Source of the DNA: Candidatus Peribacter riflensis
GTDB lineage: Bacteria; Patescibacteriota; Gracilibacteria; Peribacterales; Peribacteraceae
Assembly: GCA_001430755.1 (NCBI GenBank)
Contig: CP013062.1
Location: 900,001 to 932,000, forward strand
Direction of reading: 5' to 3'
Length of the DNA stretch: 32,000 nucleotides
Below the pieces are notes generated by a model that saw nothing but the letters and a program-made list of their open reading frames with translations, was not told the origin of the DNA and searched no databases. Below, one piece after another: positions 1 through 14,784 of this stretch. A program made the position numbers and the translations under genes. Numbering within the stretch: position 1 is the stretch's first letter; the number at the start of each line of letters is the position of its first letter.

Positions 1-141
1 ATCGGCCGCACGCTCCTGCTCAGGGACAAAGGTGACGAGCGCGACTATCTGGCCGAAACGAAAGACGGGCCGAAACTCGTGCGCTTAAAGAAGGGTGAGA
101 AGCAGTGGTACGTGGAGGAAGTGCAGACACTGAGGGAATGA
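1..141 (+). CDS. 3' end of an upstream gene that starts outside the window (product unknown)
   Basis: Frame 1 is open from base 1 (IGRTLLLRDKGDERDYLAETKDGPKLVRLKKGEKQWYVEEVQTLRE*). Its TGA (139-141) overlaps the ATG (138-140) of the next gene as ATGA. It is missing from the ORF track because it has no start in the window. Confidence 0.4.
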   Translation: MGRTLLLRDKGDERDYLAETKDGPKLVRLKKGEKQWYVEEVQTLRE

Positions 142-881
142 GACCTCGTGTCTCCCTCCTCGGCGTACCTTTGGATCCCGTCACCCGGACGGAGGCTGTG
201 ATGATCATCCGGGGATTTCTGCGCGAGGGAATTCAGCGGCATGTGATGACGCCGAATAACGAAATGCTGGTGGAAGCGGTACACAATGTGCCATTTCAGG
301 AGCTCCTCAACCGCTCAGATCTGAACATCCCCGATTCCACCGGCCTCCTCAAGATGGCCCGGCTGACGGGACAGAGCTTGCCCGAGCGTGTGACGGGCGT
401 GGATACCGTCACCTCGCTCTGCAGGGAGCTCACCGAAGAAACTCCTGTTTTCCTCTTGGGGGCGAAACCGGGTGTCGCAGAGGCCGCAGCTGCAACGCTC
501 ATGAGGCAGAATGCTCGCTTGAAAATCGTCGGCTGCTTTGCGGGAAGCCCAAAGGAAGAAGATGCCCCCGGCATCGTGAACATGATCTGTGCCGCCGCAC
601 CGCACCTGCTCTTCGTCGCGTTCGGCGCCCCCGCGCAGGATCTGTGGATCGCGAAACACCTCAAAGACCTTCCCTCCGTGCACGTGGCAATGGGCGTCGG
701 CGGGACCTTCGACTTCCTCGCAGGCGTGCGCAAGCGCGCCCCGATTGGAATGCAGCGCCTCGGGCTGGAATGGCTCTGGCGCCTCCTCAAAGAGCCGAAG
801 AGAATCGGCAGAATCTGGGAAGCGGTCGTGGTGTTTCCGCTACTGGTACTGCGTTACGGCAAAGATGTTCCGCAGAAATGA
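138..881 (+). CDS. WecG/TagA/CpsF-family glycosyltransferase
   Basis: MRPRVSLLGVPLDPVT..., LLGAKPGVAE, FVAFGAPAQDLWI, GVGGTFDFLAG..KRAP and GLEWLWRLLKEPKR match the family pattern. ATG at 138 is preferred over GTG at 105 because of the ATGA junction. Confidence 0.85.
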   Translation: MRPRVSLLGVPLDPVTRTEAVMIIRGFLREGIQRHVMTPNNEMLVEAVHNVPFQELLNRSDLNIPDSTGLLKMARLTGQSLPERVTGVDTVTSLCRELTEETPVFLLGAKPGVAEAAAATLMRQNARLKIVGCFAGSPKEEDAPGIVNMICAAAPHLLFVAFGAPAQDLWIAKHLKDLPSVHVAMGVGGTFDFLAGVRKRAPIGMQRLGLEWLWRLLKEPKRIGRIWEAVVVFPLLVLRYGKDVPQK

Positions 882-944
882 AATCCAACAAAACAACCTA
901 CACAAACGGAACAGAAACAAACAGTACACAGCATACAGGTGGGG

Positions 945-1110
945 GCGCGACACGGGGGGTGAAGGGGAAGGCCCTGCCACGCGAAGCGTGGAATGCCGAC
1001 GAGACGAGCCGAAGCCTTGGAGGCAAGGCGAGGAGGAACAGGGCCGGGCGGAGCGGGGATTGGCGCGCACGCGTTTTGGCTCCACCTTTGTCGCTCGGAC
1101 AAAGGTGGAA
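945..1110. repeat. Copy A of a ~166-nt conserved structured intergenic element (candidate ncRNA, strand unresolved)
   Basis: Aligns nearly base for base with 8412-8577. Nested helices at 945-952/1061-1068 and 970-976/1039-1045, hairpin 977-991, and terminal hairpin 1081-1109. Confidence 0.6.
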
Positions 1111-1158
1111 AGAAATCCAATTCGCCTCACCAGCCTCACTTCGCTATAGTGACCCCCC

Positions 1159-1890
1159 ATGCGCAAAGCCACCCTCTTCACCTTGAGCTGCAGCCTGCTC
1201 CTCGCAGCCTGCACGCTCCCCACCCCCTCTCGGCAGCAACAGAACTCTCCCGCATCTTCGTCGAGCGCAAGCTCCGAAGAAGTACAACTCCAGGGGGAGG
1301 AAATCGGCGAGGGCATGCCCCTGACTGAGGAACTGACCGAGACCGGCGCTCTGGCCGAACGATTCCTCTCGACTGGCGTACTCGAGATCGGCAACCCACA
1401 GGCGCCTCTGACCCTCCTCATGTTCACCGAACACCACTGCAGCTACTGCCGGCAGGTTTTGCTCGAGCTCTTTCCGCGACTCAAGACAGACGCACTCGAC
1501 TTGGGCAGTGTGAAAGTACAGATCGCCATGCTCCCCCTGCAGAAATACCAGAAGAGCACCGAGGCCGCCCTGGGTTTCATCTGCAGCGCCGCACAGGGCA
1601 AAGGGCTCGCCATGCATGACACCCTCTTCCGCAACCCCAATAAATCCAAGGAGGCGATTCTCTCGTACGCGGTGGATCTGAAGCTCGACACCGCCTTGCT
1701 GCGCGACTGCATGAAGAGCGCACGGACGACCGCCATGCTCGAGGACCAGCAGGTCTGGGCGCAGAGCCTGGGAATAGATGTGGTGCCCACGTTCTTCCTC
1801 AACGGCGAAAAGTTCATCGGGCTCCCGTATTATCCAGATCTCAGGGGCAGAATCGAAGAGGCACTGCAAGCGCTCAAGGAGCAGCAGTGA
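1159..1890 (+). CDS. DsbA-family thioredoxin-fold thiol:disulfide oxidoreductase, lipoprotein
   Basis: Signal peptide with lipobox LLLAAC. CxxC active site (HHCSYC) in a Trx-like context, followed by VPTFFLNG. Confidence 0.8.
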   Translation: MRKATLFTLSCSLLLAACTLPTPSRQQQNSPASSSSASSEEVQLQGEEIGEGMPLTEELTETGALAERFLSTGVLEIGNPQAPLTLLMFTEHHCSYCRQVLLELFPRLKTDALDLGSVKVQIAMLPLQKYQKSTEAALGFICSAAQGKGLAMHDTLFRNPNKSKEAILSYAVDLKLDTALLRDCMKSARTTAMLEDQQVWAQSLGIDVVPTFFLNGEKFIGLPYYPDLRGRIEEALQALKEQQ

Positions 1891-2248
1891 TCCGTGCACG
1901 GATGCGCACCGCCTTCGTCCTGGATGTCTGACCTTTGAGTATTTCTACGTGCGATTTCGCCACGCCAAATTCCTTCGCGAGAAACTGGATGAGGGCGGCA
2001 TTGGCCTGGCCATCTTCCGGAGCCGCTGCAAGGTCGATTTTCAGTATGCCATCGGCCATGACACCTTTCGCGCCGGTGTGCTTCGCCCCGGGATGCACGC
2101 GGACGGTGAATGATACTTCGCCTTGGGAAACCAATCGGACACGGATTCGTTCGAACACACGAAGAGTATGCCACTCTCCTAACCCTAACCCTAGCCCTAC
2201 CCCTAACCCTAGCCCTCCCCCCTCCCCCCTACATTCGCCTTCCTCCAC
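1874..2248 (-). CDS. DUF167 (YggU-family) protein; start uncertain (GTG 2248 or GTG 2158)
   Basis: VRVHPGAK....ILKIDLAAAPEDGQANAALIQFLAKEFGVAKSHVEILKGQTSRTKAV is the DUF167 signature. The N-terminal GLGLGVGLGLGLG would be translated from the hexamer repeat, so the shorter start may be the real one. Confidence 0.75.
   Translation of the reverse strand: MEEGECRGEGGGLGLGVGLGLGLGEWHTLRVFERIRVRLVSQGEVSFTVRVHPGAKHTGAKGVMADGILKIDLAAAPEDGQANAALIQFLAKEFGVAKSHVEILKGQTSRTKAVRIRARITAAP
2178..2225. repeat. Eight tandem hexamers, CCTAAC/CCTAGC/CCTACC on + and (TTAGGG-like)n on the transcribed minus strand
   Basis: Direct reading: cctaac cctaac cctagc cctacc cctaac cctagc cctccc ccctcc. The trmD stop codon (2209-2211) lies inside one unit. 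Confidence 0.8.
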
Positions 2249-2916
2249 TTTTCGATCTCTTTGTGGTGCCCCGAGAGGAGCACATCCGGAACAGTGAGCC
2301 CCCGGAATTCCTCGGGCCGCGTGTAGTGGGGATACTCCTTCTTGCGATTGAGGGAAGCGGAGAAACTCTCTTCGGTCGCAGACTCATCCTTGCCGAGCAC
2401 GCCAGGAATCTGCCGGGCGATGGCATCCACGAGCACCATGGCAGGGAGCTCCCCGCCCGTGAGCACGTAGTCGCCGATGCTCACCTCCTCGTCGATCCAT
2501 CCCCCGTCGATGATGCGCTGATCGATGCCCTCATAATGCCCACAGAGCAGAATGAGCCAATCGCACTTGGCCAGACGCTCCACGTTGGTCTGCTTGAGCT
2601 TCTTTCCGCGCGGGGAAAAATAAATTCTCCAAGGACTTCCTTTCTTTCCTTTCATTCTTTTATTTCCTCTCTTTCCTTTCTCCCCCTCACTCACAACCGC
2701 TTCCAATGCCGGCACAATCACATCGGCCCTCATCACCATCCCCGCCCCGCCGCCGTACGGCGCGTCATCGACCTGATGATACTTACCGAGCCCGAATTCC
2801 CTCAAGTCATGGAACCGGATATCCAATAACTCCTTCTCTTGCGCACGTTGAAGGATGCTCTCGGTCAGAGGCCCCTGAAACATGCCGGGGAAGAGCGTGA
2901 GAATATCGATGCGCAT
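2209..2916 (-). CDS. trmD: tRNA (guanine37-N1)-methyltransferase TrmD
   Basis: MRIDILTLFPGMF, DDAPYGGGAGMVM, LLCGHYEGIDQR, SIGDYVLTGGELPAMVLVDA and HYTRPEEF..VPDVLLSGHH are all present. ATG at 2916 is preferred over TTG at 2940. Confidence 0.9.
   Translation of the reverse strand: MRIDILTLFPGMFQGPLTESILQRAQEKELLDIRFHDLREFGLGKYHQVDDAPYGGGAGMVMRADVIVPALEAVVSEGEKGKRGNKRMKGKKGSPWRIYFSPRGKKLKQTNVERLAKCDWLILLCGHYEGIDQRIIDGGWIDEEVSIGDYVLTGGELPAMVLVDAIARQIPGVLGKDESATEESFSASLNRKKEYPHYTRPEEFRGLTVPDVLLSGHHKEIEKWRKANVGGRGEG
2636..2690. repeat. Near-pure polypyrimidine (+) / polypurine (-) tract with ~9-nt periodicity inside trmD
   Basis: cttcctttctttcctttcattcttttatttcctctctttcctttctccccctc. It encodes the in-frame insert SEGEKGKRGNKRMKGKKGSP. 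Confidence 0.7.
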
Positions 2917-2957
2917 GGACAAAGAAGTGTAGCACTGCAACGGAGGATGGCGGCTCT

Positions 2958-3662
2958 CTAGTGCTTGCGATGGTAGAACATCGTGCCGCCGCGTGTCGTC
3001 TCGCCCATCTTAAGATTCCCGCGCTGCGAAAAGGACCGCCCGACTTCTTCTCTGCGCGGCACCTCACCCAGCGCCACCTTGAGCCGTTTGAACACCTCCG
3101 CATCCCCATCATCCCCTTCGTCGCCATCCGTGCCACGCTGCTCTGCCTCCCGACCGAGCACATCATTATAGGCGTCACGCAATCGATAGAGCCGATCTTT
3201 TTCTGAGAGAGAAAGCGCTCCGTTCTCCCTCACGGCAGATTCGGCATCAATGAGAAATGTCCTGCAGAGGGCAGCAAGCTCGAGAGATGAAAGGGAATAC
3301 CATTCTGATTCAGGGTGAGCTGTGGAAGGAGCTGCTCCCTCGACAGGGGAATCTGTAACTGCTGTTTCCGGACGCGATTCATCGAGGACGCGGGAAAATC
3401 GTCCGACGAGTGTGCCACGATCCCGCTCTCCATCCGAAGCATGGAGATAGGCCACCCGAAGCTCGCGGACCAGGATAAGGACGGACTCCGGCAAATTCTG
3501 CTTCTGTGCAAGCTCCACCTCCGCTTGCCCCAATACCTGTTCGCAGGTTTTCCGGACATAGCCGGCAAGCGTGGGGGCAGCGACCATACAGGTCTCTTGA
3601 ACGACTGCCACTCCGGGCGTTGTGCCGGCCAGAATCACGTGATGATTGGAATCCAGAGGCAT
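2958..3662 (-). CDS. Hypothetical protein with an acidic low-complexity segment
   Basis: 234-codon ATG-initiated ORF co-directional with the neighbouring genes. I recognise no family motif. Confidence 0.5.
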   Translation of the reverse strand: MPLDSNHHVILAGTTPGVAVVQETCMVAAPTLAGYVRKTCEQVLGQAEVELAQKQNLPESVLILVRELRVAYLHASDGERDRGTLVGRFSRVLDESRPETAVTDSPVEGAAPSTAHPESEWYSLSSLELAALCRTFLIDAESAVRENGALSLSEKDRLYRLRDAYNDVLGREAEQRGTDGDEGDDGDAEVFKRLKVALGEVPRREEVGRSFSQRGNLKMGETTRGGTMFYHRKH

Positions 3663-3725
3663 CGCAGACGCAGGAAAAGAGAGCAGCAGTCTAGGGCTGA
3701 AAACCGCTCCGTCAAGGCAAAAACC

Positions 3726-4613
3726 TCATGCAAATGCTTTCAGCCACCGGCTCGTATCCACGATCTTCACCTCCTCCACCGGCGTGGTCGTCACCCCCTC
3801 GCGCGGCTTGAGGCGCTCGTGGAAGGCGGGGACGTCTTCGGTCTGATACAGAATGCCCGTAGCCACGCGCTTCTGCGTGTCGACCGCGAGCGCACGCGCC
3901 TTTTCGAAGTCCTTGGGATCATGCCCTTTCGCATTCGCGTCGTAGCAGTGATTGAGCAGCCACTCATGCGTGGCAAATTTATTGTAGGTGGGGCACGCCT
4001 GCAGCATGTCGACGTACGCGAACCCGCGGTGCCGGATGGCCGCCGTGAGGATGCGCGTCATCTGCGGAATATCGCCGCTCCATCCGCGCGCGACGAACGT
4101 GGGCTGCAGCGAGAAAACGAAATCCATGCTGTTTAAAGTCGTTTCGGGAACGCCGTTGGGTGAGGAATTCATGGGCTGATCCTGCCATGTGAGTGCACTC
4201 GCCTGCCCCGTGGTGAGCCCGTAGTTCGCATTGTTGTGCATGATGAACGTCATGCGGTAATTGCTGCGCACGGCATGGACGAGGTGCCCCACGCCCTCCG
4301 AGAAACTGGCTCCGTCTCCACCGAAGGCCAGCACGGGAATGTGAGGGTTGGCCAGTGCCGCACCCGCAGCGAGCGGGAGCACGCGGCCGTGGAGTCCGTG
4401 GAAGCGGTAGCCGAGGAGCTTGTCGGACATGTTGCCGTGGCACCCCACATCGAAGCAGAGCAGCACCTGCCAGGGAGCCATGTTCAGATCGACGAGCGCA
4501 CGCTTCGCCGCCGTCCAGATGCCGTAATCCCCGCACCCGTCGCACCACGTGCAGAGCTGGTCGCACGCGTAGTCGTGCAATGAAGGGCCGGAAGATGAAG
4601 CAGATTTTTTCAT
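3726..4613 (-). CDS. 2-oxoacid:ferredoxin oxidoreductase, beta (TPP-binding) subunit
   Basis: CTWCDGCGDYG, FGGDGASFSEGVGHLVHAVRSN and IMHNNANYGLTTGQ. 4-nt overlap with the alpha subunit gene. Confidence 0.9.
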   Translation of the reverse strand: MKKSASSSGPSLHDYACDQLCTWCDGCGDYGIWTAAKRALVDLNMAPWQVLLCFDVGCHGNMSDKLLGYRFHGLHGRVLPLAAGAALANPHIPVLAFGGDGASFSEGVGHLVHAVRSNYRMTFIMHNNANYGLTTGQASALTWQDQPMNSSPNGVPETTLNSMDFVFSLQPTFVARGWSGDIPQMTRILTAAIRHRGFAYVDMLQACPTYNKFATHEWLLNHCYDANAKGHDPKDFEKARALAVDTQKRVATGILYQTEDVPAFHERLKPREGVTTTPVEEVKIVDTSRWLKAFA

Positions 4614-6367
4614 GACTGCAGAGCGGAAAGGAGTGCATCGCGGAGTTCCTCGTAGAAGAACGGCCGACCGTCGAACTTGAGGATGTGTTGCGTGGCGTCA
4701 CGCCCGGAAGCGAGCTTCAGAAGAGAGGCGAGCTGCGCGCCGTGATTGCACTCCACGAAAACCGTGCGCCTGGCCGTGCGCGAGAGCATCTCGAAACTCT
4801 CGGTCTTGAGCGGCCAGAGGTACTGGTAGTGCAGGTAGCCGATCGATTTCTTCTTCATGTCTTCAGTGCCCAGTACATCCAGGATGACACCGCGATTGCT
4901 CCCCCAGCTCACGAGCAGCGTTTCGGGATTTTTGGGCCCGACATACAGAGGCTCAGGCAGTGCGGCTTTGAGAGCAGCCATTTTCTTGAGACGCTTCTCC
5001 ATCTGCCGGCGCGCGTTCTCCGCGTCCTCGGTGACCGATCCATCCGGACCGTGCTCGTCCCCCTGCGCACAGAACGTGGGGGCTTCGCTCCCGGGGAGCC
5101 AGCGCTTCGAAACACCATCGGGTGCAGCAGGATCGTACCGGTCGGCGGATCGCAGCTGCGAAAGTGCGTTGGCATCCGTGACGAGCAGTCCGCGCTTGAG
5201 CTTGGCGACGGACTGATCGAAGGCAGGCTGCGTGAAGAGCGCCTCTGCCGTCTGCTTATCGGTGAGCACAATCACCGGAATCTGGAATTCCTCGGCATAG
5301 TTGAACGCCTCAGGCATGAGATCAAAACAATCCTGTGCATCGCTGACCGCGAGCACCAGCCGCGTAAACTCGCCGTGACCGGCTCCCACCGCGAGCGTCA
5401 GATCCCCCTGTGCCGTCCACGTGGGGAGTGCCGTGCCGGGACCCGGTCGCTGCGCGAGCACGAACACCGCCGGCGTCTCGGTGATACCTGTGAGCGACAA
5501 CGTCTCGGTCATGAGATCGAACCCGCCGCCGCTCGTCGCCGTCATGGCGCGCGTGCCCATGTGCATGGCTCCCACCATCATCTGCGCGGCGGTAATCTCG
5601 TCCTCCGCCTGCTTCACGAGCATCTTCGTCTCGTTCTGCATGTCGGCGATGTAGGTGAGGAGCGGCGAAGAGGGCGTCATGGGATACCCAACGTACACAC
5701 GGCATCCCGCATGGATGATCCCCAGCCCCATCGCCTGGCTTCCCGTGAGCAGCAGATAGTCTTTCCACTGCGGGTTGGCCCGGGGGAGCGTGAGAGACAG
5801 AGACGGCGCGATCTCGGTACGCACTTTGAATCCCTCTGCGATGCACGAAAAATTGAGCGCGAGCAGATCTTTCTTGTGACCGAACTGCTCGGTGACGAGT
5901 GCCTTGAGCTCATCTGCACTGCGCCCCAGCAGGGACCAGACCACGGCCGTGATCAGCACGTTACCGAGAATGGGCTTGGCTTTGAGGGCACGCAGCACCT
6001 CCTCCGTCGGCAGATACAGCACCTTGATGTCGTGTTCCTCAATGAACTTCTGGTCGGCGGCGTCTTTGAATTTCCACTGCGGCGTCTGGTGGAGCAGGAT
6101 GCCCCCTTTTTTGAGGTCCCGAAGGTTCTTGGTGATCCCGTGATGATTAAAGGTCACGACCACATCAACGGTCGTCGTCGAACTGCCGACCGACTCCGCA
6201 TCGATATCGAGCTGGTAACTCGAGTGCCCGCCCTTGATGAGCGACATGTACTCGCGGTACCCGAACACGCAGTACCCGGCACGCTTGAGGCCCTTGGCAC
6301 ACATCTCGCCCACAGAGTTCACTCCCTGACCCTGCGCGCCAACAATTTTCAGAGATAGTCTGGTCAT
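4610..6367 (-). CDS. 2-oxoacid:ferredoxin oxidoreductase, alpha subunit with fused N-terminal gamma-like domain
   Basis: MTRLSLKIVGAQGQGVNS...IKGGHSSY is the gamma-like part, then GSQAMGLGIIHAGCRVYVGYPMTPSS and TSGGGFDLM form the alpha part. ATG at 6367; the track start at 6580 adds an Arg/Ser-rich extension that overlaps the flavodoxin gene. Confidence 0.9.
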   Translation of the reverse strand: MTRLSLKIVGAQGQGVNSVGEMCAKGLKRAGYCVFGYREYMSLIKGGHSSYQLDIDAESVGSSTTTVDVVVTFNHHGITKNLRDLKKGGILLHQTPQWKFKDAADQKFIEEHDIKVLYLPTEEVLRALKAKPILGNVLITAVVWSLLGRSADELKALVTEQFGHKKDLLALNFSCIAEGFKVRTEIAPSLSLTLPRANPQWKDYLLLTGSQAMGLGIIHAGCRVYVGYPMTPSSPLLTYIADMQNETKMLVKQAEDEITAAQMMVGAMHMGTRAMTATSGGGFDLMTETLSLTGITETPAVFVLAQRPGPGTALPTWTAQGDLTLAVGAGHGEFTRLVLAVSDAQDCFDLMPEAFNYAEEFQIPVIVLTDKQTAEALFTQPAFDQSVAKLKRGLLVTDANALSQLRSADRYDPAAPDGVSKRWLPGSEAPTFCAQGDEHGPDGSVTEDAENARRQMEKRLKKMAALKAALPEPLYVGPKNPETLLVSWGSNRGVILDVLGTEDMKKKSIGYLHYQYLWPLKTESFEMLSRTARRTVFVECNHGAQLASLLKLASGRDATQHILKFDGRPFFYEELRDALLSALQS

Positions 6368-6479
6368 AAGAAAACGGTGTAAGAACTCAACACCATTGCC
6401 TCGGCGGAGCGACTTGCCACGGCATAGCGTAGCGAAGACGGGAGCGGAGACGGGCCGACGATTTTGATGGCGAGGCGCG

Positions 6480-6947
6480 TCATGATTGCTTGGGGGTAAC
6501 CTTCGCAAGGAGCTTCTGCCCCCATGCCGCAATTTTTTCCTCCTGACCGTACGGCTCCCCGATGAGGATGAGCGGATCAACGCACATCGTACCGTTATGT
6601 TCGCGTACGAATTTCATCAGGTGCTCGGTGGCACGGGCGGTGTAGTAGTAACGGCTGTCGCCCAGTGCGATGAGCGCACAGGGTTTCTTGTTTAAATCCA
6701 CCGCGCGCGCGCGGTCCGTGAGCAGGGCATGCATGTGCGGATGTAATTGCCCCTCGCTCCCGCCGGTGTTCCACGTGCCGCAGGCCAGCAGGAGGACATC
6801 GCCCTTGAGCAGATCCTCGGCACTCGCCGCTTCGGCGCGCTGTTTCTCGGCCGTCACATCCTTGCGTATCAGAACGGGGAGCAGTGTATCGACGACATGC
6901 TCCGTGTGGCCGGTGGAGGTGGAGTAGACAACGTGCAGCAACGCCAC
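6480..6947 (-). CDS. Flavodoxin (short-chain)
   Basis: VVYSTSTGHTE phosphate-binding loop, LLLACGTWNTG and ALGDSRYYY. GTG start. Confidence 0.85.
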   Translation of the reverse strand: MALLHVVYSTSTGHTEHVVDTLLPVLIRKDVTAEKQRAEAASAEDLLKGDVLLLACGTWNTGGSEGQLHPHMHALLTDRARAVDLNKKPCALIALGDSRYYYTARATEHLMKFVREHNGTMCVDPLILIGEPYGQEEKIAAWGQKLLAKVTPKQS

Positions 6948-7026
6948 AGATGCAGGGGAAACAGATATGCAGTGTAGCGGCTGTTCTGCCTTCAGAAAAC
7001 GGAAAGATCAGAGGTTTTGAAGCACG

Positions 7027-7054
7027 TTGACTTCTGTGGGAGTGCGGGGAAAAT
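7027..7054 (+). promoter_or_regulatory. Candidate sigma70-type promoter placing the TSS at the ATG of the 7061 ORF (leaderless)
   Basis: TTGACT (7027-7032), 16-nt spacer, GAAAAT (7049-7054). The A of the ATG sits 7 nt after the -10 box. Confidence 0.3.
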
Positions 7055-7060
7055 CGGGGT

Positions 7061-7294
7061 ATGGAAACTTCCACTTCCACAACACCGGCAGACATGTTCA
7101 TGGAAGGACTGCGCCAGGATCCCGCCCTCGTAGAGGCGCTCTCGAAGGAGGGCCTCGTCATTCAGGCGATAGAGGGGAAGAAGGTGACAGTGGATTACTG
7201 GAAGCACAATCAAGAGCGCGTCCGCCAGACACTGGCCTCGATCAGCCGGCAGCTGGGGATACAGATCGACTTCGACCTGCGGGCACGCGGGTGA
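7061..7294 (+). CDS. Small hypothetical protein (77 aa)
   Basis: ATG ORF in a divergent intergenic position with protein-like composition. No recognisable family. Confidence 0.45.
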   Translation: METSTSTTPADMFMEGLRQDPALVEALSKEGLVIQAIEGKKVTVDYWKHNQERVRQTLASISRQLGIQIDFDLRARG

Positions 7295-7395
7295 AACGAA
7301 TGACCGCTTCGGAGAATCAATAAGCAGGAATACGGGCTAAACGGGCCATTTCCTTGCCGGAAGAGCCTGTCTCCGATAGGCTCCCCCATACTCTT

Positions 7396-8358
7396 ATGAA
7401 GCTCAACAAACTCTTTCATTCGGCCGTGCAGCACGGCATCGACGCAGACCCCCGCGGCCGCAAAGCCGTGGAGAAGCTTTTGAAGAAGCAGAAGGAGCGC
7501 GCCGCGAAGCTGGAAGGGGCAGAGAAGGAATACTTCGACGAGGAACGCCTGTGGAACCCGTACTCCGACAGCCGCATCATCGCAGGCACCGGCGAGGAGG
7601 ATATCAAGACCGTCATGGTCGGCATCGACATTGAAACCGAGGAGGTGCTGCTGGCAGACAGGCTCCGCGAGCGCGGCATGAAGATCGACGCCCTCATGCT
7701 CCACCACCCGGAAGGGCGCGCCCTCGGCGATCTGGAGAAGGTCATGCCACTGCAGGTCGATATGCTGGCACTGGTGGGCGTTCCGGTGAACGTGAGTGAG
7801 AATTACCTGCGCCCGCGCATGGACCGCGTGGCGCGCGCCGTGCATGCCGACAACCTCTTCTCCACGGAACGCGTGGCCGAGCTTCTAGATTTCCCTGCCT
7901 TCAACACGCACACGCCGGCGGATAACCAGGTGTGGCGCTTCATCGAGAAGACAATCTGCAACAAGGAATACGACGACCTCGGTGAGATCCTCAATGCCCT
8001 GCTCGAGATTCCGGAGTATCAGTACTACGCCAAGAAGGGTGTTCCGCCGATCATCGTGAACGGCAGCAAGGGCGGCCGACCCGGCAAGGTTGCGGCAACG
8101 GAATTCACCGGCGGCACCAATGGCCCCGAGGAACTGCTCGAAGCGCAGGCTGCGGCAGGAGTCGGCACCATCCTCTCGATGCACGTGACCGAGAAATCGC
8201 TGGAGAAAGCCAAGGAGAAACACGTGAACATGATTCAGTGCAGTCACATGGCCTCCGACGCCATCGGCATGAATCTGCTTTTAGACCTCCTCTGCAAAGA
8301 AGAGAAGCACTTGAAGACCATCGACGTCGCCGGCTTCATCCGGGTGAAGCGGAAGTAA
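7396..8358 (+). CDS. NIF3-like (GTP cyclohydrolase 1 type 2 / YbgI family) dinuclear-metal protein
   Basis: IDALMLHHPEG, FNTHTPADN and a C-terminal MIQCSHMASD. ATG at 7396 is preferred; TTG at 7354 is possible. Confidence 0.8.
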   Translation: MKLNKLFHSAVQHGIDADPRGRKAVEKLLKKQKERAAKLEGAEKEYFDEERLWNPYSDSRIIAGTGEEDIKTVMVGIDIETEEVLLADRLRERGMKIDALMLHHPEGRALGDLEKVMPLQVDMLALVGVPVNVSENYLRPRMDRVARAVHADNLFSTERVAELLDFPAFNTHTPADNQVWRFIEKTICNKEYDDLGEILNALLEIPEYQYYAKKGVPPIIVNGSKGGRPGKVAATEFTGGTNGPEELLEAQAAAGVGTILSMHVTEKSLEKAKEKHVNMIQCSHMASDAIGMNLLLDLLCKEEKHLKTIDVAGFIRVKRK

Positions 8359-8411
8359 GGGAAATATCAGCGAGTTCCCACCTCAATACTGTTTTTGCGA
8401 ATCCTGGAGGA

Positions 8412-8577
8412 GCGCGCCATCGGGGGTGAAGGGGGAGGCCCTGTCCCGCAGTCGCGGGACATGCCGACGAGTCGGCTCCGAAACCTTGGAGGAGCCAGCG
8501 AGGAGGCACAGGGCCGAGTGGAGTGGGGATTGGCGCGCCGGCGTTTTGGCTCCACCTTTGTCACGACAAAGGTGGAA
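8412..8577. repeat. Copy B of the ~166-nt structured intergenic element
   Basis: Same helices as copy A (8412-8419/8531-8538, 8437-8443/8509-8515, hairpin 8444-8459, terminal hairpin 8552-8575). It lies in the convergent gap between the NIF3-like gene and rplT. Confidence 0.6.
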
Positions 8578-8643
8578 AACAATAAAAGCAAAAACGGCAC
8601 AAACTCCGTATGAATCGTAAACAACAAGCAATAAAACTACTCT

Positions 8644-8994
8644 TCAGGCCTTCGCGCCCGCCACTTTCAGCACCGCATCGAAGGCAGCCGGCTCATGAAT
8701 GGCGAGCTCCGAGAGCACCTTGCGGTCGATGGCGATCTTCTTCTTGAGAATCTGACCCATCACTGTGGAGTACTTGAGCCCCCTCTCACGCAGTGCGGCA
8801 CTGAGACGGATGATCCAGAGGGAACGGAAATCACGCTTCTTGCGACGGCGATCCTTGTACGCATGCTGCCCCGCCTTCATCACGGCCTGCTGCGCCATGA
8901 CGAACGTGGTGCGACGCATGCCGCGGTAGCCCTTGGCGAGCTTGCGGATCTTTGCGTGACGACGATGCCGGACGATGCCACGTTTTACGCGCAT
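8644..8994 (-). CDS. rplT: 50S ribosomal protein L20
   Basis: MRVKRGIVRHRRHAKIRKLAKGYRG...RRKKRDFRSLWIIRLSAA. Confidence 0.95.
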   Translation of the reverse strand: MRVKRGIVRHRRHAKIRKLAKGYRGMRRTTFVMAQQAVMKAGQHAYKDRRRKKRDFRSLWIIRLSAALRERGLKYSTVMGQILKKKIAIDRKVLSELAIHEPAAFDAVLKVAGAKA

Positions 8995-8997
8995 GGA

Positions 8998-9192
8998 TTA
9001 GGCGTAGGGAGCAAGAGAGGAAAGTACTTTCTGGTTGACCGAATGTGCCACGACTGTGCGCTGCAGACCCTTCTGCCGCTTGCTCTTCTGCTGGAGCAGG
9101 TGACCGCGACCACGGCGCTTGAAGGCAAGCTTGCCCGATCCGGTGCGGAAGATCCGCTTCTTGGCGCCGCTGTGTGACTTGAGCTTGGGCAT
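8998..9192 (-). CDS. rpmI: 50S ribosomal protein L35
   Basis: [36 protein letters not shown] at 9192; the upstream extension in the track is not L35-like. Confidence 0.9.
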
Positions 9193-9306
9193 TGATCCTG
9201 AGGAATTCGAAGTACGTGAAAACAGGAAAGACGGCGAAGTGTAGCAGGGTAAGGGGATCGCTTTCAAAGAGAAATGAACTATTTTCCAAAGAATCTCCTC
9301 TCACAA

Positions 9307-9346
9307 ACCCTACACCCTACGCCCTACCCCCCGCCCTTCCTCCCCC
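9307..9346. repeat. Three tandem heptamers (NCCCTAC) followed by a C-run; G-rich on the transcribed minus strand
   Basis: aaccctac accctac gccctac cccccgcccttcctccccc, located directly 3' of the infC stop codon (9355-9357). Confidence 0.6.
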
Positions 9347-9354
9347 TGCTCTCA

Positions 9355-9903
9355 TCATCCTGAGTGCTTGGCTCTGAGGATAACATGGAACATCGGCCCC
9401 TGCTGCTTCAAATCCTGTTCCACGTCCGCGCAGTCCTTCAGGCCTTCCACGATGGCCAAAAGCTTTGCCTTGGCATAATCCTTATTCCCCAGTTCCCGGC
9501 CCCGCAGCCGCACGACGAATTTCACCAGGTGCCGGTCCTGAAAGAACTCCTTCGCACGCTCCATGAGACGCTCGATATCGTGTTTATCCGTACGGAAGCC
9601 GAACCGCAGCATCTTCACCTCCGTCTGCTTGCTGTGCACGCGCTGCTTCCGCTCCTTCTTGCGCAGCTGGTAGAGGTACTGCCCAAAATCCCCGATCTTC
9701 ACCACCGGCGGATTGGCCTTGGGCGAGACCTCGATCACATCCAGATCCTGCGAGCGTGCTTCCTGCAAGACATCGGCAAACAACCGTTCCTGGGCACCAT
9801 CGTCCGAAACCAGGAGCACCTGGGTCGCGCGAATCTCGTCATTGATACGTGGGCGCTTCTCCTGACGGGGAGGAATGTACGGGCCACGGCGTCGTTTTTG
9901 CAA
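9355..9903 (-). CDS. infC: Translation initiation factor IF-3
   Basis: INDEIRATQVLLVSDDG, LDVIEVSPKANPPVVKIGDFGQYLY and VKMLRFGFRTDKHD. The start codon read from the sequence is TTG. Confidence 0.9.
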   Translation of the reverse strand: MQKRRRGPYIPPRQEKRPRINDEIRATQVLLVSDDGAQERLFADVLQEARSQDLDVIEVSPKANPPVVKIGDFGQYLYQLRKKERKQRVHSKQTEVKMLRFGFRTDKHDIERLMERAKEFFQDRHLVKFVVRLRGRELGNKDYAKAKLLAIVEGLKDCADVEQDLKQQGPMFHVILRAKHSG

Positions 9904-9988
9904 AGAGGAAGAAGGGAAAGGAGCGAGAGAAGCCTAAAACAAGCACAGAGATGCAGCAAGAGCATTGTCTACAATACCGATGGGCCCC

Positions 9989-10858
9989 CTAGGTCGTCCG
10001 CCGGAGGAGGGAGAGCGAGAGGGTGAGCCGGTACCAGTCGCCGAGCGAGCCCGGCGAGAGCTCCATGCGATCAATAGTGAGAAACTCCATGGGCCAGAGA
10101 CGGGAACGCTCCATGGCCTGGCCGATCGGTCCGCGGTAGAACTCCTTCGCCTCCCGCAGGAGGGATGCATCCGTCGCAGTCTGGAATGCAGAAAGAAATC
10201 CTTCACTCTGGAGCGAACGTTTGAGCATCTCCTCGAACGGGCGTGGCTCCTGCGCGTAGCGGAAGAGATCAGTCGAGAAGAACTGCTCCAGCGCAACGAT
10301 GCCCGCAGGATTCTCCTCTTCCGTCGCACGAATGAGAGCGTTCTTTTCTGCGGATGTCAGTGCATCGCCTACAGTGAGCAGCCCCGCCAGTCGTATGAAG
10401 GCAAGCACCCGCTGCACACCGGCACTCCGCACAGAGAGTTGTACGGTGAGAGGAGTCGCTGCCATGCCATCCTCCCGCACATGTTCCTTGCCCACTTCGA
10501 TTGGCGACAGCATTCCCATCACGCCCTGTTCCTCCAATCCGCTGCGCAGCACTTCGAGGGCCGCCAGTGCCCGCGATACATCTGTTTCTGCAGGGAGCAC
10601 CGAGACGCGGATGCGTTCGAGTTGCGATCCTGTTTTCAGTGCGGCATCGAGCTCGGCAACTTCCACCTGCTCTTTGAGCAACGAAAGACGCCGCTCAAGT
10701 GACGGAAGAGCCGCCAGCAGAGGGAGCGCCGTTTCGCGCACGGTCGCCACCTGTTGCACGTGCGCCATGAGCAGCAGAACCGTGAACGCCAGCGATACCA
10801 CTCCGACGAAGCCGAGCGTGATGGTAGAGCCGGCACATGCGCGCAGAAATCGCATCAT
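9989..10858 (-). CDS. Single-pass membrane protein, PilO-like architecture with an extra C-terminal domain
   Basis: N-terminal TM segment, a coiled-coil-like stretch, then VLPAETDVSRALAALEVL...PLTVQLSVRSAGVQRVLAFIRLAGL, which resembles the PilO core pattern. 4-nt overlap with the upstream gene. The family call is weak. Confidence 0.5.
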   Translation of the reverse strand: MMRFLRACAGSTITLGFVGVVSLAFTVLLLMAHVQQVATVRETALPLLAALPSLERRLSLLKEQVEVAELDAALKTGSQLERIRVSVLPAETDVSRALAALEVLRSGLEEQGVMGMLSPIEVGKEHVREDGMAATPLTVQLSVRSAGVQRVLAFIRLAGLLTVGDALTSAEKNALIRATEEENPAGIVALEQFFSTDLFRYAQEPRPFEEMLKRSLQSEGFLSAFQTATDASLLREAKEFYRGPIGQAMERSRLWPMEFLTIDRMELSPGSLGDWYRLTLSLSLLRRTT

Positions 10859-11475
10859 CGCATGATCACGCGAAGCATGAAGGGGGAATGGAATCCGATC
10901 GTCTCATCGCGCTCGCGGCTGAATGTGGGAAAGTCACTGCGTTCGACGCCGGGCATGGCCTGCACGGCTTTCGCAAACTGCGCGAGGACCGCCATGCTCT
11001 GCAGCCCCACATTCCGCACATCGCCCTTCAGGATAATCGCCCCCTTCTCCCACACCATAGACTGGATTACCACTGCCTGTGGCTGCTCCGGCAGGAAGGT
11101 GTGTGCGACGTTCCGGAACTGCTCGAACAGAGCGAAGAATTGCGGTTGTGACATTTTTTCCTGCACGAGTGCGCCGTAGGGGGAACGATCCAGCGGCAGG
11201 ATGAGGGCAAGCCGTTTGTCTTCCATGCCCCGCATGGCGGCGCGCACCTCCTGTGCGTATGCCTGCAGACGGCTGGGATCCTGGGGTACGCCGTGCAGAT
11301 CGACCCGCGTGAAGCGCGGCAGCAGCAGGTACCACGAAAGGAGCAGGAGCGAGAGGAGCACCACGCTGAAGAGCGCGAATGGAAAGAGCACCCTGCGAAG
11401 CACCTCCCGCGGACCCGGGGCGAGCGGCACCTCCGCCCTTAATTTCTCGGCGATTGCGGCAGGAATTTGTGTCAT
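10855..11475 (-). CDS. Single-pass membrane protein, PilN-like architecture
   Basis: One TM segment (FALFSVVLLSLLLLSWYLLL), then AIILKGDVRNVGLQSMAVLAQFAKAVQAMPGV, which resembles the PilN C-terminal pattern. ATG at 11475 is preferred because a TATAAT box lies between it and the GTG at 11517. Confidence 0.5.
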   Translation of the reverse strand: MTQIPAAIAEKLRAEVPLAPGPREVLRRVLFPFALFSVVLLSLLLLSWYLLLPRFTRVDLHGVPQDPSRLQAYAQEVRAAMRGMEDKRLALILPLDRSPYGALVQEKMSQPQFFALFEQFRNVAHTFLPEQPQAVVIQSMVWEKGAIILKGDVRNVGLQSMAVLAQFAKAVQAMPGVERSDFPTFSRERDETIGFHSPFMLRVIMR

Positions 11476-11487
11476 AGGTTTCCGTAT

Positions 11488-11493
11488 ATTATA
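11488..11493 (-). promoter_or_regulatory. -10 box (TATAAT on the minus strand) 12 nt upstream of the ATG at 11475
   Basis: The plus strand reads attata at 11488-11493. There is no convincing -35 box. Confidence 0.3.
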
Positions 11494-11641
11494 GCCAAAA
11501 TATGGAGTTTTAGCCACTGACGATGATTTGCGTAACTGAAGAGTTGTATTCTCGTATCATCCATAGGAAACAGGGTGCTTCCGCACCTGCCCTTCGCACC
11601 GAAACGGGCGTATACTGCTTCCGTACTTTCCTCCTTCTCCC

Positions 11642-12722
11642 GTGGAAGATCTGCTGACAAAGCTTCGTGATCTCAAATCCGCGATCGCAACGGGGAAGGA
11701 CTCTCTTTGAGGCAAAAGGCCTTCCCAAGCGCATTCAGGACCTGACGGCGCAGACAAGTGCCCCGGATATCTGGAACGACCAGAAGCGCGCACAGGCCCT
11801 CTTCACCGAACTCAAGGTTCTCAAGAAACAATGGGAGCCGATGCAGAACATTGCCGATGAGGTGCAGGCACTGCTCGAGATGACTGAAGCCGCCTCGACG
11901 GAGGAACAGATCGCGCTCACGGAAGATGTGGAGCGGCTGGAAAAGGAATGGGCCGCCCTCGAAACGCAGCTTTACCTGAGCGGAGAATTCGACGCCTTCA
12001 ACTGCTACCTCACCGTGAGCGGCGGGGCGGGCGGCACCGAGGCGCAGGACTGGGCCGCCATGCTCATGCGTATGTACCTGCGATACTGCGAACGACAGAG
12101 GTGGAAGACGACCATTGTCGAGAAAACCGACGGGCAGGAGGCAGGCATTAAATCCGCCACCATCCACGTCGAGGGCGAATTCGCGTACGGCAATCTGAAG
12201 TGTGAAAAGGGAACGCACCGCCTCGTGCGCCTCTCGCCGTTCAACGCCAAGAGTCTGCGGCAGACCAGCTTCGCGCTCGTAGAAGTACTGCCGGAACTCC
12301 CGGAATCGACGGGGGTGGAGATCAATCCCTCGGATCTGCGGATCGACACCTACCGCAGCGGTGGAGCGGGCGGGCAGAACGTGAACAAAGTCGAGAGCGC
12401 CATCCGCATCACGCATCTTCCCACCGGCATCGTCGTCGCCTGCCAGAACGAGCGCAGCCAGCTCCAGAACCGCGCCCAGGCCATGAATATGTTGCGCGCC
12501 AAGCTGCTCGAGAAGGAACGGCTCGAACGGCAGGAGACAAAAGCGGAACTCAAGGGCGCCAGGCAGAGCGCCGACTTCGGTCAGCAGATCCGCAGTTACG
12601 TCCTGCATCCCTACCAGATGGTAAAGGACCTGCGCACAGATACCGAGACCAGCAATACCACAGGAGTGCTGGACGGCGACATCCAGCAATTCATTGATGC
12701 GGAGCTGAGACGAGGGAATTAA
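11642..12722 (+). CDS. prfB: Peptide chain release factor 2 with programmed +1 frameshift (frame 0: 11642-11707; frame +1: 11709-12722)
   Basis: SPF tripeptide, GGQ motif ([25 protein letters not shown]) and the slip site tct CTT TGA g at 11705-11711 preceded by GGGGAAGGA. The frame-0 peptide [22 protein letters not shown] starts at a GTG. Confidence 0.9.
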
Positions 12723-12804
12723 GAATGATGAATAAAGAATTATGAATGAAGAATAAGAAAGGCAAGCCGTGCATAATTCTTAATTTTTACTTCATAATTC
12801 TTCG

Positions 12805-12832
12805 AAAAAGCGCCCCTTGCGGAGCGCTTTCG
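12805..12832 (-). terminator. Intrinsic terminator of the histone-fold gene
   Basis: The minus strand reads AAAGCGCUCC-GCAA-GGGGCGCUUUUU. The one non-Watson-Crick pair is G-U on the minus strand but C-A on the plus strand, and the U-run follows only on the minus strand. Confidence 0.65.
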
Positions 12833-12852
12833 ATTCGAAAGAAAAACAGGAT

Positions 12853-13023
12853 TTACAAGTCGCAGGCGCGGACCGTCTTGCGGCCGTTCTCCTGGGCACG
12901 CTTGGCGGCCTTCTTGAGAGCATCCTCGAGGTACTTGCTGGCGGCATCAGCGAGATCGCCGGCCGTCATCATGTCGGCAGCCTTGAGAAGCTCCTTGACC
13001 TTGGAAGCAACGACGTAGCTCAT
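12853..13023 (-). CDS. Bacterial histone-fold protein (DUF1931 / singlet histone, 56 aa)
   Basis: MSYVVASKVKELLKAADMMTAGDLADAASKYLEDALKKAAKRAQENGRKTVRACDL. The N-terminal VV.SKVKE and C-terminal NGRKTV...DL are the patterns I recall for DUF1931 and Bdellovibrio-type histones, and GRKT is shared with archaeal histones. It has its own terminator and a promoter-like upstream region. Confidence 0.7.
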   Translation of the reverse strand: MSYVVASKVKELLKAADMMTAGDLADAASKYLEDALKKAAKRAQENGRKTVRACDL

Positions 13024-13055
13024 GAAATAGGGGGGAAAAAATAAGGAACGGGAGG

Positions 13056-13085
13056 ATTCTACGCACCCCTGTTTCCCCGCTGCAA
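13056..13085 (-). promoter_or_regulatory. Candidate promoter of the histone-fold gene
   Basis: Minus strand: TTGCAG (13085-13080), 18-nt spacer, TAGAAT (13061-13056), then a ~30-nt pyrimidine-rich leader. Confidence 0.3.
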
Positions 13086-13268
13086 GTGCAAAAACACGTC
13101 TTTTGGGCAAATTCTCCTCAAAATTTCAATTGACCGGCATGGCCTTCCCCTGCGCAACATGTTCATGTTGATTGCGATAAACCTTGTCATATTGCCAAAT
13201 GGTACGCAAAATCGATGACCAACACACTTTTCCCTGTACCGGTCACTATCGCGGATAACCAAAGAATG

Positions 13269-14492: not shown

Positions 14493-14610
14493 GAGAGAAA
14501 TTACATACAGAATAGAGGGTCTCCGAGCGAAAAAACATGGCAGGTCAGGGAGCGACTGAGCGGCTGACACAGAAACCGAAAAATCTTCCCTCGCTGCGAG
14601 GAACGTCCGG

Positions 14611-14616
14611 TACAAT
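14611..14616 (+). promoter_or_regulatory. -10 box (TACAAT) 10 nt upstream of the mature tRNA-Ser 5' end
   Basis: tacaatcggga is almost identical to tataatcggga at 14769-14779. Confidence 0.35.
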
Positions 14617-14626
14617 CGGGATGCGT

Positions 14627-14717: not shown

Positions 14718-14746
14718 GTCTGCACCCCGCCGTACGAGACGAACGC

Positions 14747-14774: not shown

Positions 14775-14784
14775 CGGGAGCAAC

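Follow-up and report, generated by a model that had tools for sequence, protein, structure and literature searches.

The stretch of DNA analysed here, hereafter the window, comprises 32,000 nucleotides (nt) of the genome of Candidatus Peribacter riflensis (contig CP013062.1, positions 900,001 to 932,000 of the forward strand; coordinates below are those of the window or, where so stated, of related loci). It carries two copies of a non-coding intergenic element, which near-certainly belongs to a lineage-specific, high-copy, structured interspersed repeat. As a kind, the bacterial structured interspersed repeat is already known; this family is previously undescribed, and its unusual features are a covariation that extends over three strands, a polarity with respect to replication and the occurrence in a streamlined genome of the Candidate Phyla Radiation. 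Its many copies are dispersed, keep a covarying fold, display mirror covariation in a 3′ module, are present or absent at equivalent sites of relatives, lie preferentially on one replication strand and have no linked gene. We give an about even chance to the proposal that this is a non-autonomous selfish element, copied or retained via a folded single-stranded intermediate that is recognized in trans and linked to the replication fork.

Two copies in the window, tens in related genomes

The window copies, at 945–1110 and 8412–8577, align at ~82% identity with four small gaps (three of 1 nt, one of 3 nt); for 22-nt pieces of the element, the window holds exactly two occurrences where shuffles would lead one to expect 0.00, and the copies are its longest direct repeats, no other repeat there being comparable. 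Minus-strand open reading frames (ORFs) of 86–88 amino acids (aa) span both copies, and an ATG stands at 993 on the plus strand; because the ORF translations are unrelated and 1-nt indels between the copies shift the reading frame, protein coding was rejected and the element is taken to be non-coding. The initial annotation of the window, made from its letters alone, had presented the pair as a two-copy candidate structured RNA of an undescribed kind. The pair is real, and within the 32-kb window the count of two stands; genome-wide there are tens of copies per ~1.2-Mb genome, and with dozens of them, a situation that the annotation had itself named as adverse, the idea of a two-copy gene for a discrete small RNA falls. 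The proposal is hence partly supported: the structured, undescribed and covarying element is retained, the two-copy small-RNA gene is not.

A scan of 185,579 species-representative genomes with the 22-nt motif GGGGGTGAAGGGGRARGCYMTG returned at least 120 matching stretches in about 28 genomes. Among the matches listed, all are in assemblies of Peribacteria, Peregrinibacteria or Patescibacteria, the blocks per assembly number at least 22 in UBA11694, at least 16 in STD1_181 and at least 10 in STD1_115, and one ~1.15-Mb assembly holds ~25 copies. A second scan, of metagenome contigs and anchored on a different part of the element, yielded at least about 90 further copies. Two scans of viral contigs returned no copies, and a phage origin was rejected accordingly. 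With Rfam 15, the whole window at the gathering threshold matched only at the tRNA gene 14627–14714, and both copies searched at E ≤ 10 gave only chance matches of 6–15 bits to models of eukaryotic microRNAs and long non-coding RNAs, which agrees with the earlier judgement, made by eye, that no known RNA family is involved. The complete-genome paper on the Peribacteria makes no mention of such a repeat (PMC4736985).

A multi-helix core maintained by covariation

Similarity between copies begins ~8 nt before helix P1, in a loose TGGNGG lead, and ends at the foot of the terminal hairpin. The unit of ~160–180 nt opens with a short lead rich in G; a multi-helix core of 125 nt (P1 to P5) and a 3′ module follow. 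In consensus order, P1 (8–12 base pairs (bp)) is followed by the junction J1/2 (CGGGGGGUGAAGGGGAA), P2 (GGCCCUG/CAGGGCC), the hairpin P3, P4 ((U)GCC/GGC(A)), which runs on through GACGAG opposite CGAGGA, a stretch with two tandem G.A pairs, into P5 (7 bp, its conserved loop of 11 nt being GAAWCCUUGKA), the junction J2/1 (GGGYGGAGGGGNUU), the 3′ strand of P1, a linker and the terminal hairpin.

RNAalifold on a MAFFT alignment lost P1 and P3 through misregistration, and we therefore used a hand-written structure and covariance-model alignment instead; the resulting model, R1, has 170 positions and 42 pairs and was built on an alignment of 52 sequences. In 118 copies from the genome scan, 94.9% of the cells hold standard pairs, against 80.1% in column shuffles and 38–48% with slid partners, these being counts from related copies in alignments fitted to the model and not independent events. 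Both-sided changes are present in 37 of the 42 pairs, and the covariation score is 0.378 versus 0.137, a level reached by 0 of 500 shuffles. The metagenome sample (104 copies, anchored elsewhere) behaves alike, with 95.0% paired, 34/42 pairs changed on both sides and a score of 0.352 versus 0.134. The folds are more stable than those of shuffles (z = −2.5 to −4.3), and the minimum-free-energy (MFE) fold of copy B, the second of the window copies, recovers P1, P2, P3, P4 and P5.

Across the family, the P1 form GGCGCGCC/GGCGCGCC alternates with the compensatory CCGCCGCC/GGCGGCGG, and all P1 pairs have changed on both sides; P2 has the compensatory variants GCCATG/CATGGC, GCTCTG/CAGAGC, GACCCAG/CTGGGTC and GCCCCG/CGGGGC; P3, of which 96 copies show 80 distinct versions, is hypervariable in sequence as well as in length and folds better than shuffles; P4 has GUC/GAC as a covarying form of GCC/GGC; covariation extends to the C-G and G-C pairs lying between the G.A pairs; and P5 is the most strongly covarying helix (one example pair reads CG:45, UA:38, GC:21). 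Both G-rich junctions are nearly invariant: J1/2 is the most conserved stretch, at least 80–90% at every position in a sample not selected on it, and J2/1 is largely conserved. Frequent GAAGAGG variants in these junctions break a G-tract, which bears on the idea of a G-quadruplex. A candidate pseudoknot between CCUU of the P5 loop and AAGG of J1/2 gives no covariation signal, both partners being near-invariant.

We call + the sense strand mainly because of the purine-rich junctions and the G.A pairs. Helix mismatches of the G-U and A-C kinds stand at 49:39 in the genome sample and 47:33 in the metagenome sample, favouring + weakly; a strand assignment from this ratio, an impression gained from five sequences, was not upheld by these counts.

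The nested helices that the initial annotation had drawn from two copies were all recovered in both, and its model is upheld by covariation that persists with about 200 homologues aligned. This applies to the outer helix GCGCG(A/C)CA/TGGCGCGC (945–952/1061–1068 and 8412–8419/8531–8538), the GGCCCTG/CAGGGCC helix (970–976/1039–1045 and 8437–8443/8509–8515), the inner hairpin with its two doubly changed pairs (CCACGC-GAA-GCGTGG at 977–991 versus TCCCGC-AGTC-GCGGGA at 8444–8459) and the terminal hairpin (1081–1109 and 8551–8576). Only the stretch ATGCCGACGAG, described there as invariant and unpaired, has to be redrawn: it is paired in the family consensus (UGCC with GGCA, and GACGAG facing CGAGGA, where a C-G pair separates the two tandem G.A pairs), with one mismatch in copy A, in the UGCC/GGCA part. 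The features of the two copies are as follows.

Copy A
937–1110, +: whole element (G-rich 5′ lead, structured core, linker, terminal hairpin); 145.4 bits with R1 over 941–1110
945–952, +: P1 5′ strand, GCGCGACA, pairing with 1061–1068; family covariation
953–969, +: J1/2, CGGGGGGTGAAGGGGAA, the most conserved stretch of the family
970–976, +: P2 5′ strand, GGCCCTG, pairing with 1039–1045
977–991, +: variable hairpin P3, CCACGC-GAA-GCGTGG; folds better than shuffles
994–1003, +: P4 5′ strand TGCC, then GACGAG; a continuous helix with 1029–1038 (CGAGGA + GGAA), with one P4 mismatch
1004–1028, +: P5 stem-loop, with the conserved 11-nt loop GAAGCCTTGGA at 1011–1021; the stem is degenerate in this copy
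1029–1038, +: 3′ strand of the G.A helix and P4, CGAGGAGGAA; family covariation
1039–1045, +: P2 3′ strand, CAGGGCC, pairing with 970–976
1046–1060, +: J2/1, GGGCGGAGCGGGGAT, G-rich and largely conserved
1061–1068, +: P1 3′ strand, TGGCGCGC, pairing with 945–952
1069–1080, +: linker, ACGCGTTTTGGC, candidate third strand for the purine arm of the hairpin (suggestive only, type 1)
1081–1109, +: terminal hairpin of type 1, TCCACCTTTGTC / GACAAAGGTGGA; all 12 pairs changed on both sides across the family

Copy B
8405–8577, +: whole element; 162.3 bits with R1 over 8408–8577
8412–8419, +: P1 5′ strand, GCGCGCCA, pairing with 8531–8538
8420–8436, +: J1/2, TCGGGGGTGAAGGGGGA; junction conservation
8437–8515, +: P2-enclosed domain (P2 at 8437–8443/8509–8515, P3 at 8444–8459)
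8462–8471/8499–8508, +: P4 and G.A helix; MFE fold and family covariation
8472–8498, +: P5, with its loop at 8480–8490; MFE fold and family covariation
8516–8530 and 8531–8538, +: J2/1 and P1 3′ strand; family covariation
8539–8550, +: linker, CGGCGTTTTGGC, of a type-1 module
8551–8576, +: terminal hairpin of type 1; family covariation

A 3′ module with triplex-type covariation

The terminal hairpin comes in two types, type 1 (UCCACCUUUGUC/GACAAAGGUGGA), to which both window copies belong, and type 2 (CUUCUUUCUUUGUC/GACAAAGAAAGAAG); these are mostly, not always, coupled to the two forms of P1, and chimeras occur. In type 2 the linker mirrors the pyrimidine arm of the hairpin, i.e., it reads as a parallel third strand for the purine arm (A to U/T, G to C), and arm and linker vary together: AAAGAAA goes with TTTCTTT, AGAGAAA with TCTCTTT, AAGAGAAA with TTCTCTTT, AAAAGAAA with TTTTCTTT, GAGAGAAA with CTCTCTTT and AGAAAAGAAA with TCTTTTCTTT. 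Over 30 purine-run variants of this type, the summed match to the own linker is 206, versus 165.9 ± 5.4 when permuted (0 of 5000 permutations reach it), and of the asymmetric variants, 15 match better in the parallel sense than in the antiparallel Watson-Crick sense and 2 the other way round. Such three-strand covariation is what would be predicted of a triple helix of the pyrimidine motif, formed within one molecule from T(U).A-T(U) and C.G-C triples, and from these sequences we infer that the 3′ module may form one. In type 1, the linker UUUUGG faces AAAGG and one lineage has both changed to GGG; this evidence is thin, and for type 1, the window copies included, a triplex-type linker is no more than suggested.

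A few stand-alone linker-plus-hairpin modules without the core exist, a finding that is qualitative only, as a perfect hairpin reads alike on both strands and confounds the count. In STD1_181 the element is followed, ~35 nt downstream, by another pyrimidine/purine hairpin, TTGCCCTTTCTTTGCC..GGCAAAGAAAGGGCAA, which has a linker to itself, CTTTCTTT (L026 3527–3564, L046, L079 and L129 5930–5967, where L-numbers denote related loci fetched by synteny or from the scans); the 3′ module is therefore also an independent unit.

Orientation follows replication, not transcription

GC skew was read on each element's own strand from the surrounding block, with the elements masked. The C-rich strand (negative skew) carries 90 of 110 copies from the genome scan (Wilcoxon p about 1e-13) and 53 of 65 from the metagenomes (binomial p = 3e-7), i.e., in about 82% of copies the G-rich strand of the element lies on the C-rich replication strand. 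By genome, the majority is of negative skew in 22 and of positive skew in 5; along large UBA11694 contigs, skew sign and element strand are constant together; and in the window, with a GC skew of −0.029, both copies are on +. The AT skew of the window is +0.077. None of the controls displays a comparable bias: element and neighbouring-gene orientations stand at 54:56, gene strand against skew gives a non-significant rho of −0.12, and tRNA genes against skew give 31:24. Orientation follows replication and not transcription. The leading strand is by the usual convention G-rich, under which the G-rich structured strand would be the leading-strand template and its complement the lagging-strand template; the paper on the Peribacteria genomes describes its skew plot as 'of the expected form' (PMC4736985).

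Gene context, ends and partners

Copies favour gene 3′ ends, without a fixed relation to transcription. Around 106 copies, with genes called as crude greedy ORFs, 37 contexts are convergent, 29 co-directional with the element in sense, 25 co-directional with it in antisense and 15 divergent; the copies between convergent genes nearly fill their gap, and the upstream gene is co-oriented with 66 of the 106 and antisense to 40. Both window copies come after + strand genes: copy A lies between genes for a WecG-family glycosyltransferase (105–881, +) and a DsbA-like protein (1159–1890, +), and copy B between the convergent genes for a NIF3-like protein (7354/7396–8358, +) and rplT (8644–8994, −). 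A riboswitch or 5′ leader was rejected, given the convergent neighbours of copy B and the occurrence of the family in all four gene contexts.

The 40 nt upstream of copies hold no conserved positions in which a promoter might be sought, and no promoter-like or terminator-like site was called at either window copy. An intrinsic terminator was rejected as neither strand has a U-tract, the hairpin being followed by A-rich sequence on + and by GCCAAAAC on −. The intergenic DNA beside both copies (881–936 and 8577–8640) is A/C-rich on +, with AAACAAACA-type tracts. In window positions 1–20000, hairpin-plus-U-tract terminators are not enriched (18 versus 17.0 ± 4.5 in shuffles) and sigma-70-like promoters barely so (8 versus 5.0); this lineage may end transcripts in another way.

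The two ends of the element, G-rich lead plus P1 at 5′ and hairpin at 3′, are unrelated. The non-hairpin end has only the loosely conserved lead, the flank beyond the single simple terminal hairpin is merely A-rich, the longest end-to-end inverted match is 4–5 nt in most of 114 copies, and the longest k-mer common to 5′ and 3′ flanks is distributed as for flanks of different copies, so that neither terminal inverted repeats nor a target-site duplication were found. A transposable element of the miniature inverted-repeat kind (MITE), which the initial annotation had raised, is borne out as regards small size, lack of coding and dispersal; with neither of its terminal hallmarks found, the classical form was rejected.

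Clustering of 829 neighbouring ORFs from ~1.8 Mb of fetched loci revealed no recurrent neighbour protein family, the largest cluster being nine proteins in nine loci, S-layer-homology-like by eye. The Pfam lists for the fetched loci are of housekeeping genes, no nuclease or recombinase gene adjoins any of about 230 loci, and a Y1 transposase gene of the RAYT (repetitive extragenic palindrome-associated tyrosine transposase) kind is neither present in the window nor recurrent in the ~1.8 Mb. The window encodes only housekeeping and envelope-glycosylation genes, and neither a transposase nor a reverse transcriptase. A linked autonomous partner was rejected on these grounds.

Turnover at orthologous sites

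Equivalent sites differ in occupancy between relatives whose flanks are ~75–84% identical, a level at which presence or absence can be read and exact junctions cannot. L001 has copies at both window-equivalent sites; in L002 neither is occupied and one copy lies upstream of prfA; more distant relatives have no copy in 21 kb. The site of copy B (site B) holds a full copy in the window and L001, is empty in L006 (83-nt gap) and in L130, the closest fetched relative, contains a bare type-2 hairpin module and other repeats. L130 in turn holds a copy, at its 19.8-kb site, where the window has 35 nt, and a site filled in L093 is empty in L104 and L213. At the site of copy A (site A), the copies of four genomes differ by several compensatory changes (e.g., P5 GGAGCC/GGCUCC versus GGCUCC/GGAGCC), and one relative has a type-2-derived relic there; hence, replacement or re-insertion is indicated rather than descent in situ. 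One copy is 5′-truncated (L222), and some are interrupted by smaller nested repeats. For 31 of 76 copies, where 7.3 would be expected, the closest relative is another copy of the same genome, i.e., there are genome-specific subfamilies. At site B of L007 (11730–11960) we observed a partial variant with a P1-like GGCGCGCCAC, an extra hairpin and a GGGGGGTGAAGGGGAAGGCC motif running into unrelated sequence, which scores only 17.8 bits with the covariance model.

Smaller repeats accompany the large one. A hairpin resembling a repetitive extragenic palindrome (REP), (GTCA)YCCTGAGC-N3-5-GTCGAAGGR(TGAC), has 27 matches in ~1.07 Mb of fetched loci, where it stands alone or lies inside the large element, in either orientation and at several different positions (L037 4080–4289, L031 323–509, L053 6432–6660, L001 6013–6040). 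A related mini-insert of ~35–40 nt, GCCTGCCGGCCGTAG..hairpin..CGAAGGCTGG, interrupts some copies of the large element (L001 2282–2317 and, inverted, about 11010–11045; L084, L123, L086); because L117 3438–3640 and L120 5561–5732 have flanks 92–98% identical and differ by such an insert, it was apparently mobile recently. A third repeat consists of C/T-rich versus G/A-rich hairpins, CCCCTCTCCC..GGGAGAGGGG (L130 10990–11100, L030 1395–1500, L132 12766–12793), at intergenic sites where other genomes have the large element. As for public gene calls, an 87-aa hypothetical ORF of L130 (1628–1891) lies over its A-site copy (overlap 1685–1855), and repeats of the family are probably annotated as proteins; a 119-aa call in L002 (11057–11416) is a separate insertion and not the element.

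A possible route of spread

On the account to which we gave even chances, the family would be, or would recently have been, a selfish mobile element multiplying through a folded single-stranded form; an enzyme whose gene lies elsewhere in the genome would recognize that form in trans, and insertion or retention would be tied to the replication fork. Such a route would account for the conservation of structure over sequence, for the lack of terminal inverted repeats and target duplications and for the constant orientation of copies along a replichore. The element would presumably move, as opposed to spreading by recombination only, and its intermediate would presumably be single-stranded.

Several points weigh against this proposal. 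Insertion boundaries are blurred, the comparable genomes being ~75–84% identical. The 125-nt core with its invariant purine junctions far exceeds the needs of known single-strand DNA transposases and suggests, rather, an RNA that has its own function. The mismatch counts (49:39 and 47:33) favour + only weakly as the folding strand; if + is the active strand and the leading strand is G-rich, as is usual, its placement is opposite to the expectation for IS200/IS605 or a group II intron. The replication bias could stem from selection after insertion and not from the insertion mechanism, the context analysis rests on crude greedy ORF calls, and the window has no transposase or reverse transcriptase, with none recurrent beside copies.

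Alternative explanations

The best of the alternatives, which we hold to be possible and clearly behind the selfish element, is a host-serving RNA element at gene 3′ ends, like REPs and bacterial interspersed mosaic elements (BIMEs), ERIC or BOX, and co-transcribed with the upstream gene. Its core and stable, possibly triple-helical hairpin would end or insulate transcription and shield the 3′ end of the mRNA from exonucleases. RNA 3′ ends can be stabilized by triple helices of the U.A-U type, as is known from the ENE of MALAT1 and PAN RNA, and a symmetric hairpin could serve transcripts from either side. The intergenic placement agrees with such a role, as do the enrichment of convergent contexts (37/106, the gap nearly filled) over divergent ones (15/106), the co-orientation of 66/106 copies with the upstream gene, the position of both window copies after + genes and the lack of enrichment of canonical terminators in the window (18 versus 17 expected). 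However, 40 of the 106 copies are antisense to their upstream gene, 25 of all copies being antisense between co-directional genes, and for these an RNA role of the sense strand cannot apply; moreover, orientation tracks replication, copies are dispensable at orthologous sites and the sequence after the hairpin is A-rich and not U-rich.

Somewhat less probable, and doubtful in our view, is a multigene family of trans-acting structured RNAs (a protein sponge or a ribonucleoprotein scaffold) or a new class of ribozyme, of which the copies would be the genes, with the invariant G-rich junctions and three GGAGG/GGA motifs binding either the anti-Shine-Dalgarno sequence of the ribosome or a protein. 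Functional RNAs typically combine the features seen here, namely helices that covary along with a variable hairpin, purine-rich junctions that do not vary, G.A pairs in tandem and a hairpin loop (11 nt) that is conserved; the folds are more stable than shuffles by the z-scores given above, and, with no Rfam family matching, such an RNA would be new. Yet similarity starts just ~8 nt before P1, with no conserved promoter, no U-tract terminator follows, and copies are polymorphic at orthologous sites, truncated or interrupted by repeats. The missing promoter and terminator and this state of the copies likewise speak against the small-RNA gene of the initial annotation, as does an orientation unrelated to the neighbouring genes. 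A-C mismatches are nearly as frequent as G-U, and individual copies thus seem to drift and not to be kept by selection at the RNA level; the replication-strand bias has no obvious explanation here, and small-RNA genes so placed would be head-on to replication.

Unlikely, and a step further down, is a bacterial analogue of short interspersed nuclear elements (SINEs), i.e., a mobile structured RNA. Its core would be either a ribozyme or an RNA domain that a nuclease or reverse transcriptase encoded in trans recognizes; the 3′ modules, exchangeable, of two types and with chimeras, would be a tail for recognition and stability, whose triple-helix cap would protect the 3′ end of the RNA; and it is at the replication fork that new copies, 5′-truncated ones included, would enter the chromosome.

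The least probable is an element acting as DNA, in which a mirror and inverted repeat would form H-DNA or a cruciform and have a replication-polar role in pausing the fork, as a hotspot of recombination or in orienting a translocase, or would be tolerated in one orientation only: the strong, gene-independent strand bias and the homopyrimidine mirror repeat adjoining the hairpin suit it, but the covarying 125-nt core and its invariant single-stranded junctions are left unexplained, the G-rich motif lies on the C-rich strand, opposite to the placement of the G-rich translocase-orienting motifs KOPS and SRS, and all three strands of the predicted triplex are on one strand, as befits a single-stranded molecule over duplex H-DNA. 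Also on its side are the highly rearranged state of element-bearing loci between relatives and the abundant intrastrand triplex motifs tied to genome instability in bacteria (PMC4666352). Neither the host-serving 3′-end element nor the family of trans-acting RNAs nor the element acting as DNA accounts jointly for the antisense copies, the polymorphism and the replication bias.

Comparison with known elements

A close parallel is bcr1 of the Bacillus cereus group (Okstad 2004 and Klevan 2007, via Delihas 2011), a ~155-bp non-coding interspersed repeat that is confined to its lineage, has compensatory changes that hold a multi-stem fold at the RNA level, varies in distribution among close relatives, lacks a transposase, has 5-bp direct repeats on its flanks and is transcribed (PMC3184786). 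The Peribacteria element shares the lineage specificity, the ~150-nt size class, the variable distribution and the compensatory changes; unlike bcr1, it lacks direct repeats or a target duplication, and its invariant G-rich junctions, mirror-repeat 3′ module and replication-strand bias are not reported for bcr1.

The end hairpins of REP/BIME and IS200/IS605-type elements are recognized as single-stranded DNA. Like REP/BIME, the element is high-copy and intergenic, favours gene 3′ ends, has a hairpin at or near an end and lacks terminal inverted repeats and target-site duplications. REPs are described as 20–40-nt G+C-rich palindromes with a GTAG or CGTC head (PMC3733652); the present element, in contrast, has 160–180 nt, a branched core and one simple terminal hairpin with an A/T-rich stem and no such head. 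IS200/IS605 likewise lacks inverted ends and duplications, has an end hairpin and has a fork-linked orientation. Its transposition is reportedly, in work of Ton-Hoang from 2010, linked to the replication fork, a bias in strand orientation being the result. By the usual skew convention, however, it is the C-rich complement of the Peribacteria element, and not its sense strand, that lies on the lagging-strand template, and no Y1 transposase was found near its copies or in the window.

MITE-type repeats (Correia/NEMIS, RUP, ERIC) and BOX are similarly small, non-autonomous, multicopy, intergenic and predicted to fold when transcribed, and the modular build of BOX is comparable to a core with an exchangeable 3′ module. 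The terminal inverted repeats or target-site duplications of MITEs are absent, and their folds are long imperfect palindromes, whereas those of the Peribacteria element are multi-helix junctions with conserved loops. Structured, covarying RNAs of ~150–200 nt that can outnumber their protein genes are further known as the omega RNAs of TnpB/IscB (HEARO) and the bridge RNA of IS110. These are encoded at transposon ends; in contrast, no nuclease or recombinase gene lies beside the ~230 loci of the Peribacteria element, Rfam HEARO does not match it, and its variable parts are ordinary hairpin stems and not guide-like loops.

The 3′ module resembles the ENE of MALAT1, PAN RNA and plant and fungal transposon RNAs, in which two pyrimidine strands clamp a purine-rich 3′ strand. 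With these and the bacterial motifs of Holder 2015 (PMC4666352) it shares a putative third strand that mirrors the Watson-Crick pyrimidine strand, here with covariation. It differs from the ENE in its sequence, in its order, linker-arm-loop-arm on one strand, and in its predicted triples, of the C.G-C as well as the U.A-U kind, and the type-1 copies of the window carry a weak version only, UUUUGG facing AAAGG. The Peribacteria element is set apart from the known systems by its elaborate core, invariant purine junctions and triplex-type tail, and from bcr1 and MITEs also by the missing direct repeats.

Other features of the window

The sole Rfam match of the window, the tRNA gene at 14627–14714 (+), has a long variable arm and 98–99% identity to the L130 and L006 versions, the adjacent genes being just ~75% identical. 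At 23203–23256, a tandem array of a 9-nt unit (CCTTACCTA-like, ~6 copies) lies within the ORF 22745–24175 (−), which encodes glycosyltransferase group 1/4 domains.

Implications

In bacteria of the Candidate Phyla Radiation, genomes are tiny and streamlined and are thought to be poor in mobile elements; that a single structured repeat fills dozens of intergenic regions in a genome of ~1.2 Mb is an unexpected burden, and the element is the main source of differences between otherwise syntenic loci. There is a practical warning in this, as the family yields spurious ORF calls and mimics a 'novel small RNA' in scans of window size. Its combination of features offers a testable handle on how structure-dependent repeats spread and on a putative enzyme acting in trans in this uncultured lineage. 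Should an RNA triple helix form in the 3′ module, bacteria would have a counterpart to the RNA stability elements of eukaryotes and viruses; and if the element were the mobile, SINE-like RNA considered above, it would represent both a kind of mobile element and a natural 3′-end triple helix not so far described in bacteria.

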